Shown piece after piece: positions 41,138 to 46,645 of a DNA stretch of 64,000 nucleotides. Positions within the stretch are counted from its first letter, which is position 1, and each line of letters begins with the position of its first letter. Origin of the DNA: Acidimicrobiia bacterium (lineage in GTDB: Bacteria; Actinomycetota; Acidimicrobiia; Acidimicrobiales; JANYDT01). Position numbers and translations under genes: made by a program. The stretch covers positions 4,571-68,570 of the forward strand of contig JANOYY010000047.1 of NCBI GenBank assembly GCA_031429095.1, written 5' to 3'. The notes under the pieces are model-generated. The model was not told the origin of the DNA. It saw nothing but the letters and a program-made list of their open reading frames with translations, and searched no databases.

Positions 41138-42433
41138 TTATCCGGCCGCCCACAGAGTCGTCTCAGGCAAGCCCCGCATAATACGGTGAGCGACCTCGCT
41201 GCCTTGAAGAAACGAGTGATCCTGATTCGAAACTTCATATCGCCACCCGCCGAATCGGCCGCGCGAAAACACATGTTCATGCTCAAGCCGGGTATGTACG
41301 TCTCGGAGTACGGCATCTCGCTGGAGAGTCGGGATCGGATAGCCGTGGCGAAGGTAGTGCGTCCAGGTAGTGGCAAGGACGGATGGATCGCAGAGACCCC
41401 GTTCGCCGAGCGCCCTCAGAAGACCCTCTGCCGGTTGCGGTACGAATCCGTCAGCTCCGCCTGACTCGCAAAGCAGCGACCAGTGCCCCGGGGGCGCATT
41501 ATGTGGAGAGTATCTGCTGAGAACCGTAAGTCGGTAGCAGTCAAGCTCAGGCTCGGCGCAATACAGCCAGTCCAAGTCGGAGAGTACGGGTGGCGGGGAG
41601 CCCCGAAATCCAAATCCACAAAGACCTACCGAGGTGTTCTCGATCGCACCCCCCAGTGATAGGGAGGCCAACGACGGCGTCCGATCGATCAGGGTCGTTA
41701 GGGGGATCGTAGAAATCAAGACATCGTAGGAACAAGCTGACCCGTCAGACATCTTGACTGTTCGAAGACGAGTGTCCAATTCTTCGAACGCAACCCCATT
41801 TGATATGCGTGCTGAAGGAAGTCGACTTGCGAGTGCAGACCAGGGTGCGCCGGTTCCCCCTCGCGCAGGATAGCGGAATCGGCGGTTCGGTCCCCACGAT
41901 TCGTCCGATCCGTCGTTGGACTTTGCAACACGGTCCCCAACCCACACACTCGACATCGCGGCTGGCTCGATGTTCCAAAGTTTGCGATTGTAAGGCAGAA
42001 GGAACTGTTCGATTACCCGGGCGCTGAACTGGCGGCGCATCCAGCCTTCAAACGACGCCGGGTCTGCGTGCGGTTGGTCGCCCTCGGTGGCGGCCTGATC
42101 TGGCAACTGATCCTCATTGTGCTGCACCGGATACGCAACAGTCTGTCCTCCCACAAGAGCGGCGGCGCGCCGGTCGTGCCAGATCCAGGATTCGGCGCCG
42201 AGAAGGTCATCCATGAGGAGGTTGTACGCCCGACTTCGGGAGAACCCAACGTGGCCCCCGAGGTCCCATGTAAAGCCGTCTTGGACGATCGATTGTGAAA
42301 GGCCGCCGCACTGCGCGCCACTTTCGAAGAGTCGCCAGTCGGCGCCGTAGGCCTCAAATGTCATCGCGGCTGCGAGCCCAGTCGGACCACCGCCGACAAT
42401 GACAACGATCGGTGATTTCGAGTCGTCGGTCAA
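41138..42433 (-). CDS. FAD-dependent enzyme homologous to eukaryote-type UDP-galactopyranose mutase
   Basis: VVIVGGGPTGLAAA dinucleotide fold, ESGAQCGGLSQSIVQDGFTWDLGGHVGFS, and C-terminal SRGRFGGWRYEVSNQDHSFLQGSEVA. This matches the fungal/kinetoplastid UGM pattern as I recall it (...PGGLAS...GFLYDVGGHVIFS... and [24 protein letters not shown]). The TTG start overlaps the stop of the preceding small ORF (TTGA). Confidence 0.75.
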   Translation of the reverse strand: MTDDSKSPIVVIVGGGPTGLAAAMTFEAYGADWRLFESGAQCGGLSQSIVQDGFTWDLGGHVGFSRSRAYNLLMDDLLGAESWIWHDRRAAALVGGQTVAYPVQHNEDQLPDQAATEGDQPHADPASFEGWMRRQFSARVIEQFLLPYNRKLWNIEPAAMSSVWVGDRVAKSNDGSDESWGPNRRFRYPARGGTGAPWSALASRLPSARISNGVAFEELDTRLRTVKMSDGSACSYDVLISTIPLTTLIDRTPSLASLSLGGAIENTSVGLCGFGFRGSPPPVLSDLDWLYCAEPELDCYRLTVLSRYSPHNAPPGHWSLLCESGGADGFVPQPAEGLLRALGERGLCDPSVLATTWTHYLRHGYPIPTLQRDAVLRDVHTRLEHEHVFSRGRFGGWRYEVSNQDHSFLQGSEVAHRIMRGLPETTLWAAG

Positions 42434-42729
42434 AGACTCGGGCTTCTCGGCATCCGGGCGCCGAGATCGGCCATGTCACGGCGCAACTGCAAGAGCTCCC
42501 GCATGACGTCATCGAGGTTCGGTCCGAGATCGAAAGCTGCGCAGGGATTCGGTGGCGGCGGTGGCACAGGTGCGCCTCCGGGAGTGCCTCCGTCGTTAGT
42601 AAGCACTGCGCCGAATCGCTGCAGGATTTCGATCAGCGCTCGGGGGTTTTTCGCGATATCGATCACATCGCCGTACTTCTTCCGCACTGCTTCGACGATT
42701 TCGTTGTCACGATCATCAAGTGCACTCAT
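42430..42729 (-). CDS. 99-aa hypothetical protein with central polyproline segment
   Basis: MSALDDRDNEIVEAVRKKYGDVIDIAKNPRALIEILQRFGAVLTNDGGTPGGAPVPPPPPNPCAAFDLGPNLDDVMRELLQLRRDMADLGARMPRSPSL. ATG 42729 is preceded by GGGGA. Third codon positions are GC-biased. It is wedged with overlaps between the P4H and the UGM-like gene. The longest ORF start (42861) would overlap the P4H by 146 nt. Confidence 0.5.
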   Translation of the reverse strand: MSALDDRDNEIVEAVRKKYGDVIDIAKNPRALIEILQRFGAVLTNDGGTPGGAPVPPPPPNPCAAFDLGPNLDDVMRELLQLRRDMADLGARMPRSPSL

Positions 42730-43309
42730 GTTCGTCCCCATCTCTATGGTTTTGGGTGTGGCTTTGAAGAATCGGGTGCGAGGACCAGGAGACCAGCGAG
42801 ACCCTCTGTCCTCGGAGTACTGGGTGGACCCGGTGAATTCCAAGTCGACTGCCGATGCCATCGGGCCATCGGTTCACCCACGACACAACCGTACCGGCGA
42901 CCGGTTGGACGACCAAATCTGCATCCGGAAACTCCAGCTCGCCACCGGACTCGGGACCTCGCAGAACGACCATGATGGAACGAATCCGTCCCAGAACTCC
43001 ATAAGGATCATCGTGGTGTGCATCGAACCTCGCGCCGACACCGTACCGGAGCGCCTGCCAACCCGCCAGCGATCTTGCAGGGATTGAGGTTGCGGTGAGA
43101 ACAGCCTCCTCAACCTCGCGCACCGCACATGTCAACTGTGCCGTAAACGTGTCGGGAAAAGCTGTTTCGCTTGTGCGAGCAGGCGAGACAGAGACACCGT
43201 TGGCGTCGTCGATCACCGTGCTCCTGCGCCAGTAGGCAAATTCCAGCTCGTTCAGAACTCGTGTGCAGAGATCGGTCGTGATCAGGCCGGGCCACACCTC
43301 GATGCTCAT
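42716..43309 (-). CDS. 2OG-Fe(II) oxygenase, prolyl 4-hydroxylase (P4Hc) type
   Basis: ALRYGVGARFDAHHDD (HxD), GGELEFPD and HRVHPVLRGQRVSLVSW (distal His plus basic 2OG ligand). The start overlaps the GT stop (ATGA at 43306-43309). Confidence 0.75.
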   Translation of the reverse strand: MSIEVWPGLITTDLCTRVLNELEFAYWRRSTVIDDANGVSVSPARTSETAFPDTFTAQLTCAVREVEEAVLTATSIPARSLAGWQALRYGVGARFDAHHDDPYGVLGRIRSIMVVLRGPESGGELEFPDADLVVQPVAGTVVSWVNRWPDGIGSRLGIHRVHPVLRGQRVSLVSWSSHPILQSHTQNHRDGDEHECT

Positions 43310-44208
43310 GGTGCTCTCGTCGTGACGAGGTGGGTCATCGAATTGCGCTCGACGAACTCCACCGCCGAGCGCGAAATGGCTGAACGATCACTGCCTGCGT
43401 CCAGAATGTAAGACCGGACCAGGTTCAGCGATGCCCTGTGCTGATCCGACCAGTTTGAGGACCGCGTCCAATGCGGTTGGCGTTGGGTGCGATCGTAGGC
43501 ATGCCAGCCAATCGGGATATGGGGATGAAACAAGTCGAAGCCCAACGAGATCAAGAGCAGCGACAACAGAACCTCGTCGCCGAAGAAGTAGATATCGTCG
43601 AGAACGGAGAGTTCCTCGATCGCGTTGAGAGTTCCCGCCCCGAACAGAAGGTGCAGCGAAACGAACTCGGCCGGGACGGGGCAGATGAGAGACGACGCAA
43701 ACGGAATTGGCCAGCCGGCGAGGCGCGTGAGGATCCCATCCTCGCGCTCGTGCGGGATCAACCGAAGTGCTCGCGGGGTAAAGTTCCAGAGCGGTACGCC
43801 CGGACGATACGGCGACAAGTACGACGTCAGGACAACCTTTTCGGGCCGTCGGGTCTGCAGGCCGGCCGAGCGATGCATGGCGACCAGCTGTTCGTCCCAA
43901 CCGGGAAGAAACCGATGGTGTGAGTCAAGCAACAACGTGAACTGTTCGTCGGTCCACCGAGCCCGCAGCTGTCGACGCGCCCAGTTCGGGCCCTCGCTCA
44001 GCCGAGCGTCGACTGCAACAACGTCCAGGTTCGGGAGCGAGAGGACATCGTTGTCGATCGTCTCGCCATCATCGTGCTGCCACAATACGGCCACTCGGAG
44101 ACGATGCGGTTTGGTCGCCATTGCGTAAAGACTTCGAATTGTCGGACACAGCTCCGTGTCTAAGAAGGAAGGTATCTGTACATAGATCTTGTCGTTCTCG
44201 TCGCTCAC
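43306..44208 (-). CDS. GT-A glycosyltransferase of the polypeptide-modifying 'GlcNAc' (Gnt1/GT60-like, PF11397-like) type
   Basis: The N-terminal IYVQIPSFLDTELCPTIRSLYAMATKPHRLRVAVLWQHD and the DxH motif LLLDSHHRFLPGWDEQL match my recollection of the Skp1-hydroxyproline GlcNAc-transferase family and the DSH of mucin-type ppGalNAc-Ts. It has a GTG start. The 5' end is rich in AT-ending codons. Confidence 0.65.
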   Translation of the reverse strand: MSDENDKIYVQIPSFLDTELCPTIRSLYAMATKPHRLRVAVLWQHDDGETIDNDVLSLPNLDVVAVDARLSEGPNWARRQLRARWTDEQFTLLLDSHHRFLPGWDEQLVAMHRSAGLQTRRPEKVVLTSYLSPYRPGVPLWNFTPRALRLIPHEREDGILTRLAGWPIPFASSLICPVPAEFVSLHLLFGAGTLNAIEELSVLDDIYFFGDEVLLSLLLISLGFDLFHPHIPIGWHAYDRTQRQPHWTRSSNWSDQHRASLNLVRSYILDAGSDRSAISRSAVEFVERNSMTHLVTTRAP

Positions 44209-44476
44209 GGGACCCGACCCGCATTTGTATGTCGGTCATTGAGCACTTCGACTGTGTTTGTTCTCACCGTCTCACCTCCGTGAATTGCGTGAACGTTACC
44301 CCGCGCACGGGTATTCCCACGGTCGAAGACGGGCCAGCAACCACGGCGGAGGAAAGCCCGTCGAGAAAGTTCGCACGATGCCAAGGCGCTTCGTCGTGTG
44401 TGCGGTCAGCGCGGCCAGAAGGTGTAGCAAACCCAGTGGTTGGCGCGCTGGCGCGGAGAGAAGTAGACAGAGGCCA

Positions 44477-45226
44477 ATGCCTCTTCTCGAAAACCCCGCC
44501 GCGTTCTCTTCCCTCGTTGCTCCGGCCATCGACCGAACGGCTATATCTCTGCACACCGTCGTCGACAAGACCAAGCTGCAGGCGTTGCGCGGCGAGAACC
44601 GGTTTCACCCCGGCGCACTCGCACTCTTCGCAGGTCCTCTGGCGAGTGGGGGAATGTCGCAGGTCGAATACAACGAACTCACTCGCTACGAGCATTTCGG
44701 ATCGAGCGCCGACTTCCTTGCTGGCCTGGCCGATCGTGGCGCCGTTGAGCTGGTCGATGGCCAGGTCCGCGCCACGGCATCCGCGATCGAGGTCGCTCGA
44801 GGAGTGGTCGCCTTACAGTCGGAAACGGTGACTGCGCTATTCGAGCCGCGTCAGGCGCTCCTCCCTATAATATGTGCGCTTATATTACGTGCGCGTGGTG
44901 CTGCTATCGCCGATGGCAATTCTCCGTTGTCACGTTTGATGGGGCGAGCATGGCTCCCCGACGACGCATCGGATGCGGCGCGCATATGGGATGCATCAGT
45001 TGTGTTGCGCATGCACCGTGCCGATGCGCACGCAATTGCGTGGAAGGAAGCTGGGCTTACGGCTCCGGAGATCCGCTTGATGGCCCCGGGAGATGCCCGA
45101 GACGCGATCGAGGAGCGAACGAACGAGTTGGCAGCAACTCCGTGGGTGGGCCTGAGCGCCGACGAGCGAATCACGCTCTTGTCGGGTCTGGCTGCACTGC
45201 CCGGAACAGGCGTGCCGGTTCCGTAA
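44477..45226 (+). CDS. hypothetical protein, possible helix-turn-helix (SCO6745-like) protein
   Basis: Starts MPLLENPAAF (AGAGG SD). The C-terminal VLRMHRADAHAIAWKEAGLTAPEI resembles the RxxRGDxHxAA motif of a family of actinobacterial HTH-like proteins. The upstream part of the 322-aa ORF is Arg-rich. Confidence 0.5.
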   Translation: MPLLENPAAFSSLVAPAIDRTAISLHTVVDKTKLQALRGENRFHPGALALFAGPLASGGMSQVEYNELTRYEHFGSSADFLAGLADRGAVELVDGQVRATASAIEVARGVVALQSETVTALFEPRQALLPIICALILRARGAAIADGNSPLSRLMGRAWLPDDASDAARIWDASVVLRMHRADAHAIAWKEAGLTAPEIRLMAPGDARDAIEERTNELAATPWVGLSADERITLLSGLAALPGTGVPVP

Positions 45227-45276
45227 GGTCGAACAGGCGCAGGGGACTGGCCGGCGTGGCGAGTAGGTTTTCGGGA

Positions 45277-45696
45277 ATGGAACAATCTGACGATCGCACG
45301 TCGCCGAAGGAGATGTGGAAAGGCGACGAGGCTTCACGGTCGGCGGGCATGTCGCTCGATGAGGTTGAACTCGGCCGCTCGGTCCTGTCGATGATGGTGC
45401 GCGCCGACATGGTGAACGGTCTCGACGTGTGTCACGGTGGGTATGTGTTCATGCTTGCTGATTCGGCGATGGCGTTTGCCTCCAACACGGCGGAATCGCC
45501 CGCGCTGGCGGCCGCCGCGCAGATCGACTTCACCGCTCCGGCCCGTCTGGGGGACCGGCTCGAAGCTCGCGCGACAACACAGTGGAGTGGCGGTCGAACG
45601 GCCCTGCACGACGTCGAAGTACGCAACCAATCCGGTCAGCTCATCGCCCGGTTCCATGGGCGCACAACCCGCGTCACGCTCCCGCCCACGAACTGA
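45277..45696 (+). CDS. hotdog-fold acyl-CoA thioesterase, PaaI family
   Basis: NGLDVCHGGYVFMLADSAMAFASN and ...GRTALHDVEVRNQSGQLIARFHG; 139 aa from ATG 45277. Confidence 0.75.
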   Translation: MEQSDDRTSPKEMWKGDEASRSAGMSLDEVELGRSVLSMMVRADMVNGLDVCHGGYVFMLADSAMAFASNTAESPALAAAAQIDFTAPARLGDRLEARATTQWSGGRTALHDVEVRNQSGQLIARFHGRTTRVTLPPTN

Positions 45697-45724
45697 TCCC
45701 GTAGAAGAAGGAGTGGACCCTGTC

Positions 45725-46645
45725 ATGGATCACGACCAAGAAGCTCAGCGCGCATATCTCAATGCGAACAGCGGGATCAAAGGACTCGAAATCCTTGACC
45801 CCTCGGAAGTGGAACGCGCAGTTCGGATCTTTCACCGCGATGGTTTCGTCATCGTACGCGACGCGCTCACCGCCGACCAGGTATCCTTCCTCAAAGCTGG
45901 CGTCGACGAAGCGGTGCGCGACATCATCGCCCTCGATCCTGACCGCAGCGGGAATCGCGGATCGCACCGCTATTCCTTCGGAGGGTCAAGCATGACCCGA
46001 AGCATGTTGCACTGTCCGGAATGGCAGATGCTGGTAGATCTCCCGACGGTGACACCGATCGTGACAGCCATCTTCCAATCATCGGACTACCTACTTCGCT
46101 CGGGCAGCGGCGACTTCTGCTTGCCGGGTGCAACGAAGTACCAGCCTCTACATTCCGATGTGGGGGACTATCGCGAGCGATCGGCGACACCGTTCAGCTC
46201 CTTTCATGATCCGCGCGGTCACTTGTCGACTAGAGATCTTCCGTGCCCATACGTTTGCGTGAACTTCCTTACGGTTGATTCCACCAGGTTGAATGGTCCG
46301 ACCCGTCAAATCCCCGGGTCGCAACATTCGCGTGCACCGTTCCCGACTTTGGCCGAAGAACCGGAGTGGATGCGGCTGAGCACCGTTTGCCCGGCGCCGG
46401 CCGGCTCAGTGCAGATTCGTGACGTTCGAGCATGGCACGGTGGCACGCCAAACGTGTCTGACCACGTACGTGCGATTCCAAACGTGGAGTTTTACGCGCC
46501 ATGGTTCCGCGAGCCGATCATCTCCGGCATTACCAAAGCTGATCGTCAGAAGTTGTCTCCATTTGCCCAACAGCTCACCCGCTACTGCGTGGCCGACTCT
46601 GCCGACGAGCTGCGTACCGGGTACACCTTGACGCCACCGCGATGA
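45725..46645 (+). CDS. phytanoyl-CoA dioxygenase (PhyH) family 2OG-Fe(II) oxygenase
   Basis: FHRDGFVIVRDALT, LHSDVGD (HxD) and a later WHGGTPN. 306 aa from ATG 45725, with a GAAGGAG SD upstream. Confidence 0.75.
   Translation: MDHDQEAQRAYLNANSGIKGLEILDPSEVERAVRIFHRDGFVIVRDALTADQVSFLKAGVDEAVRDIIALDPDRSGNRGSHRYSFGGSSMTRSMLHCPEWQMLVDLPTVTPIVTAIFQSSDYLLRSGSGDFCLPGATKYQPLHSDVGDYRERSATPFSSFHDPRGHLSTRDLPCPYVCVNFLTVDSTRLNGPTRQIPGSQHSRAPFPTLAEEPEWMRLSTVCPAPAGSVQIRDVRAWHGGTPNVSDHVRAIPNVEFYAPWFREPIISGITKADRQKLSPFAQQLTRYCVADSADELRTGYTLTPPR

Follow-up and report, generated by a model that had tools for sequence, protein, structure and literature searches.

Gene arrangement at the locus

The window (the whole stretch of 64,000 nucleotides from an Acidimicrobiia bacterium that was analysed) carries on its minus strand a cassette of a glycosyltransferase (GT), a prolyl 4-hydroxylase-like oxygenase (P4H), a small ORF and a UDP-galactopyranose mutase (UGM) homolog (Table 1). 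An earlier note on this DNA had placed the small ORF between the P4H and UGM-like genes, with its start and stop overlapping both, and its coordinates were confirmed: the ATG lies at 42729-42727 and the TGA at 42432-42430, and the encoded protein is MSALDDRDNEIVEAVRKKYGDVIDIAKNPRALIEILQRFGAVLTNDGGTPGGAPVPPPPPNPCAAFDLGPNLDDVMRELLQLRRDMADLGARMPRSPSL. The stop codon of the P4H gene (TGA, 42718-42716) falls within the small ORF, and in a 'TTGA' junction at the other end the TGA of the small ORF has two bases in common with the TTG (42433-42431) from which the UGM-like gene starts. Through translational coupling, the products of all four genes are made together. The GGGGA site that had been proposed as a Shine-Dalgarno sequence was found as well, and GGAGG- or AGGAG-like sites occur at the equivalent place in most type-1 homologs. 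A further in-frame ATG at 42741 would give a 103-aa form, as in a public record (P0277); it has no Shine-Dalgarno sequence of its own, and members of the family begin at or after residue 3-5. A scan for promoters and terminators gave nothing exceeding shuffled expectation.

Table 1. Features of the cassette, in order of position in the window
Feature	Position	Strand	Remarks
Eukaryote-type UDP-galactopyranose mutase homolog, 431 aa	41138..42433	minus	TTG start overlaps small-ORF stop; optional fourth cassette gene
Small ORF	42430..42729	minus	99 aa + stop; proposed carrier/substrate protein; founding member of an unannotated family (~85-130 aa)
Pro/Gly loop, codons 45-63	42541..42597	minus	N-D-G-G-T-P-G-G-A-P-V-P-P-P-P-P-N-P-C; proposed hydroxylation/glycosylation site
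Prolyl 4-hydroxylase-like 2OG/Fe(II) oxygenase, 197 aa	42716..43309	minus	PF13640, 8.7e-11; 3' end overlaps small ORF by 14 nt
GGGGA Shine-Dalgarno-like site	42735..42739	minus	5 nt before ATG at 42729
GT60-type (Gnt1-like) polypeptide glycosyltransferase, 300 aa	43306..44208	minus	PF11397, 8.6e-39; ATGA overlap with P4H start

The best solved relatives of the P4H are Chlamydomonas P4H-1 (2jig, 8.5e-9), the Bacillus anthracis P4H (3itq/5hv0) and human C-P4H alpha-2 (7zsc). All its solved relatives at E ≤ 0.01 are of the collagen/algal type (the above and 3gze), with no PHD2/EGLN/PhyA-type chain among them, and the nearest of these enzymes hydroxylate poly-Pro or X-Pro-Gly peptides. The protein keeps H98-x-D100, H159 and the basic 2OG-binding residue, and about 7 residues are missing after the HxD motif in the copy of the window. 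The GT scores 134 bits against PF11397 (cutoff 21) and has an invariant D95-S96-H97 ('DxH') and H230. Its branch in the GT tree is very long (1.55), and a search of the PDB with its profile gave no match. The Skp1 hydroxyproline GlcNAc-transferase is a member of this PF11397 family (Pfam description; PMC8724618).

The UGM homolog is related to the solved enzymes of Trypanosoma cruzi (4dsg, 1.5e-81, residues 7-426) and Aspergillus fumigatus (~1e-72). Since this homology already starts at residue 7, the TTG start is needed; the 408-aa public gene call would cut off the GGGPTG FAD-binding motif, which is present only with the TTG. Among all cassette proteins, PADLOC returned a generic 2OG-domain match for the P4H, and none for the small protein, GT or UGM. 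On direct reading, no signal peptide or long hydrophobic run was seen in the small protein, P4H or GT, and the longest hydrophobic stretch across the small-protein family is 9 residues.

AlphaFold2, run on a 120-sequence alignment, predicts helices at residues 4-19, 29-43, 65-68 and 72-92 of the 99-aa protein, behind an acidic N-terminus (MSALDDRDNE), while residues 44-64 form a low-confidence loop (pLDDT 52-65) without secondary structure. Of the helix-loop-helix architecture that had been suggested, the loop and the helix following it are thus retained, the N-terminal part being predicted as two helices instead of one.

A small-protein family linked to P4H and GT

The searches found 158 homologs of the small protein, and ~150 clusters at 50% identity among 1.84 billion representatives; the homologs span at least four phyla and occur in Acidimicrobiales, Microbacterium, Arthrobacter, Caulobacteraceae, Gemmatimonadaceae and a myxobacterial MAG. 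Between family members dN/dS has a median of 0.15 (29 pairs), i.e. the family is under purifying selection. A reading frame that is conserved across phyla and under purifying selection goes beyond chance, and the small ORF is a real gene, which founds an unannotated protein family. The absence of similarity to Skp1 or any recognised family, already remarked upon in the earlier note, held throughout: scans with Pfam, NCBIfam and PADLOC gave no match for the small ORF, nor did Pfam for 120 of its relatives, a PDB profile search with the family returned coiled-coil matches only, at insignificant scores (E > 0.1), and a Foldseek comparison of the AlphaFold2 model against the PDB gave nothing at E < 7.

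Composition and the nearest relative, taken by themselves, would still allow an open frame that arose by chance or as the shadow of a gene on the plus strand. The plus-strand ORFs to which the earlier note referred (42412-42975 and 42473-43087) do exist, and the third-position GC bias that it held up against them does not discriminate: the small ORF has a GC1/2/3 of 0.70/0.46/0.63, and because one of the plus-strand shadow ORFs reaches a GC3 of 0.67, composition cannot separate them. Compared with a 98%-identical relative (L096), the small ORF has 9 substitutions, with 4 synonymous and 4 non-synonymous codon changes, which is too few to judge. Operon-wide, the 60 substitutions between the two are distributed 13/6/41 over codon positions 1/2/3, a third-position bias that reflects recent selection in this lineage. 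The comparative data refute the chance reading, leaving it next to no probability, since the family shows position-specific conservation in at least four phyla, the low dN/dS given above and conserved Shine-Dalgarno sites, whereas the plus-strand ORFs overlap the P4H gene too, besides the small ORF. At several conserved positions the window copy itself differs from the consensus (P21D, L25I, R37Q and G61N).

The linkage with the two enzymes is equally widespread. In loci found by way of the small protein, GT and then P4H lie directly upstream in 13 out of 13 informative cases (12 independent contexts), covering at least four phyla. Starting from the GT instead, the order GT-P4H-small protein was recovered in 44 of 80 metagenome loci; among the loci without the full trio, 25 are too short, 12 of these showing the start of the P4H. 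A frame that was not conserved next to P4H/GT pairs would have counted against the idea of a dedicated substrate, and the opposite was found. In the loci examined the GT invariably has a P4H-type oxygenase as its partner, and it is typical of the family that the P4H gene is followed by a short gap or an overlap. The UGM is present in a minority of cassettes only (the window, L004, L010, L023, L079, L081, L089 and L096). When 401 genomes sampled from the phylum were searched, the small protein turned up in the present one only, and so did PF11397.

The genes flanking the cassette vary between loci. A defence-island reading was considered in view of a TIR gene in L010, HNH and nuclease genes in L007 and a Wadjet system 13 kb away, and was rejected because the neighbours are inconsistent between loci.

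The proline-rich loop and its possible roles

Although it is predicted to be disordered, the loop is the most conserved segment of the small protein, with an entropy as low as 0.86 bits in its core versus 1.6-2.3 bits in the helices. The family consensus reads P-D-G-G-[LTS]-P-G-G-V-P-x-P-P-P-P-P-G-P-[STC]; the corresponding peptide of the 99-aa protein is GGTPGGAPVPPPPPNPC and its consensus version DGGLPGGVPPPPPPGPS. Conservation reaches at least 90% at eight loop residues (D46, G47, G48, P50, G51, G52, P60 and P62), and P60, which in most members lies in a Pro-Pro-Gly-like context, is 99% invariant. Neither the small protein nor the family consensus has, on direct reading, the Gly-X-Y periodicity of bacterial collagen-like proteins.

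The motif varies in copy number. A second type of carrier is longer and contains 1-6 tandem copies of a related motif (PPDGGxPEPG[TV]PP..GP); these type-2 carriers go with a sub-clade of the GT (100/99 support) and lie next to an oxygenase in which PF13640 and JmjC are combined (a P4H-JmjC fusion). In addition, two tandem paralogs of the small protein follow a single enzyme pair in L012, the loop is duplicated in P0123, and the Pro-rich loops of P0150 and P0145 are extended. In the genome of the window the motif occurs only once in all six frames. Linkage and motif repetition would also fit a non-substrate partner that binds the enzymes via its loop.

The 99-aa protein, which the earlier note took for the likely dedicated substrate or scaffold of the enzyme pair, is probably a dedicated substrate rather than a scaffold, a reading supported by the syntenic frame, the conservation of the loop and the repeats of its motif. 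The substrate is favoured because the best-conserved segment is a disordered loop, the motif is repeated, paralogs and a duplicated loop exist, the motif is unique in the genome, and the relatives of the P4H act on substrates of this kind. To judge from these sequence patterns, the invariant Pro-rich loop is most likely the site that the P4H and GT hydroxylate and glycosylate.

The same gene arrangement could be explained if the small protein were an accessory subunit, adaptor or regulator that docks to the enzymes through its loop, as a pseudo-substrate or scaffold, and helps them act on a different protein encoded elsewhere. A subunit would account equally well for the strict synteny and the translational coupling, the helices are moderately conserved, and one P4H-small protein fusion is predicted (P0256). 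We nevertheless consider a subunit unlikely, since a binding motif is not expected in up to six tandem copies, in duplicate or with extra prolines, whereas tandem paralogs behind a single enzyme pair are typical of substrates. Moreover, no other protein of this genome contains the motif and the varied flanks hold no conserved fourth partner. In the P0256 fusion the G20 region, invariant elsewhere, is missing, and the fusion may be an artefact of gene calling.

Two other readings retain a modified small protein but change the chemistry or its purpose. The GT60 enzyme might glycosylate the residue at position 63, the P4H modifying prolines independently, e.g. to stiffen the loop. This position is S in 38%, T in 30% and C in 24% of the family (S/T/C in 92%), and GT60 includes Ser/Thr-directed polypeptide GlcNAc-transferases, among them the Golgi pp-alpha-GlcNAc-transferases (PMC8724618). 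In the type-2 repeats, however, G-P is followed by D, T, E, A or S, with no conserved hydroxyl, and [VT], the other loop position that can bear a hydroxyl, is Val in 68% of the type-1 members. As the GT is always accompanied by a P4H-type oxygenase, its acceptor seems to depend on hydroxylation, and the position-63 chemistry appears improbable. A RiPP-like precursor, from which the modified Pro-rich core would be excised for export as a glycopeptide natural product, is called to mind by a small gene beside tailoring enzymes, by the conserved core motif and by the tandem copies in L012. It is nonetheless very unlikely, given that no conserved protease, transporter or recognition-element gene is found in the 13 informative loci (12 independent contexts), and that the core is internal, with conserved helices on both sides, in a protein without a signal peptide.

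Proposed pathway and comparison with known systems

Taking the small protein as the substrate, a likely account of the whole is that it serves as the cytoplasmic acceptor ('carrier') of a mobile three-gene module of GT60, P4H and small protein, which here is enlarged by the UGM. The P4H would use O2, 2-oxoglutarate and Fe(II) to hydroxylate at least one proline of the loop DGGxPGG[VT]P-x-PPPPP-G-P, for which P60 is, by its conservation, the best candidate, and the GT60 enzyme would then move a sugar from a UDP-sugar onto the hydroxyl so created. Alpha-GlcNAc would be expected by analogy with Gnt1. Which sugar is donated and which residue accepts it is guesswork, and position 63 (S/T/C) could take the place of hydroxyproline as the GT acceptor. 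The mutase, where present, might supply UDP-galactofuranose, which would extend the glycan or itself be the donor. Against such a role of the mutase stands that the cassette contains one GT only. The three helices may act as a small handle that displays the loop, and the C-terminal helix may form a coiled coil. As a guess, the modified protein could be a conformational or oligomerisation switch that depends on O2, 2OG and Fe, as with Skp1.

The Skp1 pathway (Dictyostelium, Toxoplasma, Pythium) is the closest point of comparison in terms of enzyme order: PhyA and Gnt1, followed by more GTs, act on Pro143 of Skp1. As far as can be told from the genes, the present cassette likewise has a P4H followed by a GT60 (PF11397), both soluble cytoplasmic enzymes, and it is proposed to have one dedicated small helical acceptor with the proline in a flexible region and a modification that is O2-dependent through hydroxylation. 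However, the acceptor is unrelated to Skp1 (with its POZ/dimerisation domains), having no Pfam or fold match, the P4H is of the collagen/algal and not the PHD2/PhyA type, the site is a repeatable poly-proline/Gly motif, and the genes form a bacterial operon, sometimes with a UGM attached and with no further GTs.

In the hydroxyproline-rich glycoproteins of plants and green algae (extensins, AGPs, CLE-type peptides), membrane P4Hs work together with Hyp-O-arabinosyl or galactosyl transferases. The P4H of the cassette, with Chlamydomonas P4H-1 (2jig) as its nearest solved relative, shares their collagen/algal-type catalytic domain, the substrate would similarly be a run of prolines, probably in PPII conformation, and a furanose-donor mutase belongs to the pathway (UDP-Araf in plants, UDP-Galf as suggested here). 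Unlike in plants and algae, neither a signal peptide nor a secretory route is present, the transferase is GT60 versus GT95, GT31 or GT77, the motif is DGGxPGGVP..PPGP versus SPPPP, without SP(n) or AP/SP repeats, and the carrier is a single small protein versus a large wall protein. The collagen-type P4H of B. anthracis (3itq, 5hv0) and the viral/algal P4Hs belong to the same oxygenase subfamily, and the B. anthracis-type bacterial enzyme is active in vitro on Pro-rich or X-Pro-Gly peptides, but these P4Hs are not known to have a linked dedicated substrate or a partner glycosyltransferase.

A broader reading may be offered tentatively, as a possibility that falls somewhat short of being probable, namely that the cassette represents bacterial cytoplasmic Hyp-O-glycosylation. 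A portable motif, D-G-G-x-P-(x)-x-G-[VT]-P-P...G-P, would be carried in a single copy on proteins of ~95 aa or in as many as six copies on longer carriers, and would be written by a collagen-type P4H and a GT60 enzyme, sometimes with galactofuranose, as a switch responding to O2, 2-oxoglutarate and iron. By descent or gene transfer, it would be related to the eukaryotic GT60/Hyp machinery (Skp1, eukaryote-type UGM). Hydroxyproline glycosylation is known from plants, algae and, in the case of Skp1, protists, and we are aware of no demonstration of it in bacteria, nor of clear physiological substrates for bacterial collagen-type P4Hs so far. In the literature searched, no description of a bacterial cassette of P4H, GT60 and small protein was found. 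In the cassette, two enzymes come together with a candidate substrate encoded beside them and a motif that is short and well defined; it is relevant to how the eukaryotic GT60 and Hyp-glycosylation pathways arose and could give a compact, orthogonal 'glyco-tag' system. Its cultured carriers include Microbacterium deminutum (GCA_039530205.1) and Arthrobacter sp. ok362 (GCA_900102785.1).

Conservation and layout of the small ORF

Composition leaves undecided whether the 99-aa ORF is coding: its GC content at the three codon positions is 0.70/0.46/0.63, while one plus-strand shadow ORF has a GC3 of 0.67, so that the GC-biased third positions that the earlier note took as a mark of coding do not serve as one. 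Conservation, however, favours the small ORF over its plus-strand competitors (which the note had rightly called shadows), and it is because of this conservation that it is, judged by comparison with its relatives, a real gene under selection. A six-frame search of relatives gave one match (44% identity), from a different family within the order, with the same GT-P4H-small protein arrangement, an ATGA junction and GGAGG. With a two-sequence profile further copies were found in a Caulobacteraceae MAG and a myxobacterial MAG, and a four-sequence profile retrieved 158 homologs of 82-130 aa among 5.8 billion proteins (including Microbacterium deminutum, Arthrobacter sp. ok362 and a Gemmatimonadaceae MAG); 153 matches came from scanning 1.84 billion representatives exhaustively with HMMER. 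All 158 homologs are annotated as 'hypothetical' and lack a Pfam domain, and neither sequence nor fold comparison found a relative in the PDB, in agreement with the initial failure to recognise any family. The proposed acceptor is a new protein family.

The median dN/dS of the small protein is 0.15 (Nei-Gojobori, 29 pairs of metagenomic copies). Compared with L096, a syntenic and 98% identical locus, the operon has 60 differences (13/6/41 at codon positions 1/2/3), and these recent substitutions show purifying selection on the operon; nine of them are inside the small ORF, too few for a verdict alone. Composition by itself would permit a non-coding artefact, which in view of the conservation is next to inconceivable.

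Overlaps join all four minus-strand genes. The GT stop overlaps the P4H start in an ATGA, and the junctions of the small ORF are as the earlier note described them: its ATG (42729) is 14 nt ahead of the P4H stop, two bases of its TGA are shared with the TTG of the UGM-like gene, and the GGGGA Shine-Dalgarno site is found 5 nt upstream of the ATG. Most copies in the family start between -34 and +26 nt from the P4H stop, after a Shine-Dalgarno-like site. The public record has a 103-aa version, starting four codons further upstream, but the 99-aa start matches the family N-termini and the Shine-Dalgarno site better.

The UGM-like gene encodes a eukaryote-type UDP-galactopyranose mutase. Since its similarity to solved structures begins at residue 7, the TTG start at 42433 is needed to retain the GGGPTG FAD-binding motif, and it is the only start that does so; in the public gene call (408 aa, starting at Met24) the motif is lost. 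The mutase is optional in the cassette, being present in the window, L004, L010, L023 and L096, as well as in the type-2 loci (a variant described below) L079, L081 and L089. The divergent gene pair upstream of the cassette is also kept in L096 and is absent beside the cassettes of other taxa. A neighbouring DUF885 protein is closest to Acidimicrobiales/Acidimicrobiia MAG proteins (best named match ~70% identity), which makes an acidimicrobial actinomycete the probable host.

Features of the window and of compared loci (L-numbers)
Feature	Position	Strand	Remark
GT60/Gnt1-like glycosyltransferase (GT)	43306-44208	minus	PF11397, 8.6e-39
2OG/Fe(II) oxygenase (P4H)	42716-43309	minus	PF13640
99-aa small ORF	42430-42729	minus	no family match
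FAD enzyme, UGM-like	41138-42433	minus	T. cruzi 4dsg, 1.5e-81
HTH_67-family regulator and PhyH-family 2OG dioxygenase	44258-46645	plus	divergent, upstream of cassette
Type-2 examples	L086:874-2103; L087:4643-5275; L087:5375-6973
Tandem small-protein paralogs	L012:6630-6971; L012:7001-7297
GT60 with other oxygenase	L066:3229-6427
GT60 gene in two frames	L002:1-857		shift at ~L002:270-345

Linkage to the hydroxylase and glycosyltransferase

The earlier note had proposed to search beside P4H/GT pairs in other Actinobacteria, and at syntenic loci the reading frame is kept. Starting from the small protein, the P4H is directly upstream and a PF11397 GT next upstream in 13/13 informative loci, representing 12 independent contexts (the window, L002, L003, L004, L006, L007, L008, L010, L011, L012, L013 and L096/L097), with outer neighbours that are unrelated between loci. 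Starting from the GT, a profile yielded 80 metagenomic loci, which were scanned with HMMs of the three proteins: 44 have the order GT-P4H-small protein ('type 1') and eight a 'type 2' variant, 25 are on contigs that are too short (the P4H start being visible in 12), two show GT-UGM before the contig ends (of which L081 is also counted among the 25), and two near-identical loci have another oxygenase and no detected carrier. At L066 and L067 a type-1-clade GT60 gene without a detected carrier is followed ~1 kb downstream by a different PF13640 oxygenase, and then by a B12/radical-SAM-like gene. In L002 (genome G042, same order) the GT60 gene is in two frames, with a shift near the LIDS-HHRF junction, and is a pseudogene unless the shift is a sequencing error; the downstream P4H and small ORF are intact.

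Of 401 genomes sampled from the phylum, only this one has the small protein and only this one has PF11397, and the trio is therefore a rare, patchy and evidently mobile module. Here the GT and P4H are single-copy, and the six frames of the genome together contain exactly one copy of the motif. The closest solved relatives of the P4H are Chlamydomonas P4H-1, Bacillus anthracis P4H and human collagen P4H alpha-2, with no PHD2-type enzyme among those listed. In the family the HxD...H and basic residue of the P4H are conserved, as are the DxH and distal His of the GT. The lineage of this genome is fast-evolving: its GT has the longest branch in the GT tree (1.55 changes per site), and its P4H lacks ~7 residues just after HxD (both genes within 42716-44208, minus strand). 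Its small protein departs from the family consensus at P21D, L25I, R37Q and G61N. Despite these departures, the catalytic residues are all retained.

The loop and its repetition

The AlphaFold2 model of the small protein (120-sequence alignment; mean pLDDT 77.6, pTM 0.34) has helices at 4-19, 29-43, 65-68 and 72-92, the C-terminal one with weak, non-significant coiled-coil similarities, and a low-confidence loop at 44-64 (pLDDT 52-65). This predicted-unstructured loop is the best-conserved part, with a mean entropy of 0.86 bits in its core versus 1.6-2.3 bits in the helices. Its consensus is P-D-G-G-[LTS]-P-G-G-V-P-x-P-P-P-P-P-G-P-[STC], in which D46, G47, G48, P50, G51, G52, P60 and P62 are conserved in at least 90% of the family. 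Collagen-type P4Hs act in an X-Pro-Gly context, which is matched by P60 and the Gly that follows it in most members. A short motif that is conserved, disordered and linked to enzymes looks like a modification site. Two unusual proteins came from the representative search: P0129 (252 aa) carries the small-protein domain after a ~150-aa Ala/Leu-rich (HEAT-like) N-terminal extension, and P0256 (320 aa) is an apparent P4H-small protein fusion that is without the invariant G20 region and could be an artefact of gene calling.

In the type-2 loci (L043, L070, L073, L078, L079, L084, L086, L087) the GT60 gene is followed, sometimes after UGM, by a longer carrier of 143-424 aa and then by the oxygenase, a PF13640 domain fused to a Cupin_8/JmjC domain. 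Several of these carriers retain an N-terminal KYGxVIDL signature; after the N-terminal part comes a conserved inserted region (PFGVSWMDSWVAHW), then the repeat PPDGGxPEPG[TV]PP..GP in one to six tandem copies (L086 has six, L079 has two, and L043, L084 and L087 have three each), and a conserved hydrophobic C-terminus (ENPWILYWFxSxKAPxLLDVIDAH). Both types share the core D-G-G-x-P-(x)-x-G-[VT]-P-P...G-P. In a maximum-likelihood tree nine of nine type-2 GTs group in a single clade (100/99 support) that lies within the type-1 GTs, so that a change of motif variant goes with a change of enzyme lineage. Among the type-1 loci, one GT-P4H pair in L012 is followed by two paralogs in tandem, of which the first has extra PxPSPxP units in a longer Pro-rich loop. 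The DGGxPCGGTP motif is duplicated in P0123 and the loop extended in P0150.

Proposed modification and alternatives

Judged by their lack of export signals, the small protein, P4H and GT are cytoplasmic; a signal peptide or membrane segment is absent from every member of the small-protein family. In the proposed pathway the P4H would hydroxylate a loop proline (P60 being the first candidate), upon which the GT60 enzyme would glycosylate the hydroxyproline; the analogy with Gnt1 suggests alpha-GlcNAc as the sugar. UDP-Galf would come from the mutase, either as the donor itself or for use in a later step, and the modified loop may shift the conformation or oligomerisation of the carrier.

The earlier note left a choice between substrate and scaffold. 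Repetition, duplication and expansion of the motif would be expected of an acceptor site and unexpected of a scaffold docking surface; that the small protein is an accessory or regulatory subunit is unlikely. It seems rather less likely still that it is a substrate carrying its sugar on S/T/C63 instead of on hydroxyproline, and a RiPP-like precursor is very improbable.

An acceptor modified on hydroxyproline is more likely than not. No published description of a bacterial cassette of this kind was found in the literature. Closest in logic is the Skp1 pathway of protists, where PhyA is followed by the GT60 enzyme Gnt1 (PMC8724618). With it the cassette has the GT family in common, as well as the proposed order of hydroxylation before glycosylation, the predicted location in the cytoplasm and a putative small acceptor of its own. 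The cassette differs in that its acceptor is not Skp1, its hydroxylase is of the collagen/algal type, and its site is a repeatable poly-Pro/Gly motif.
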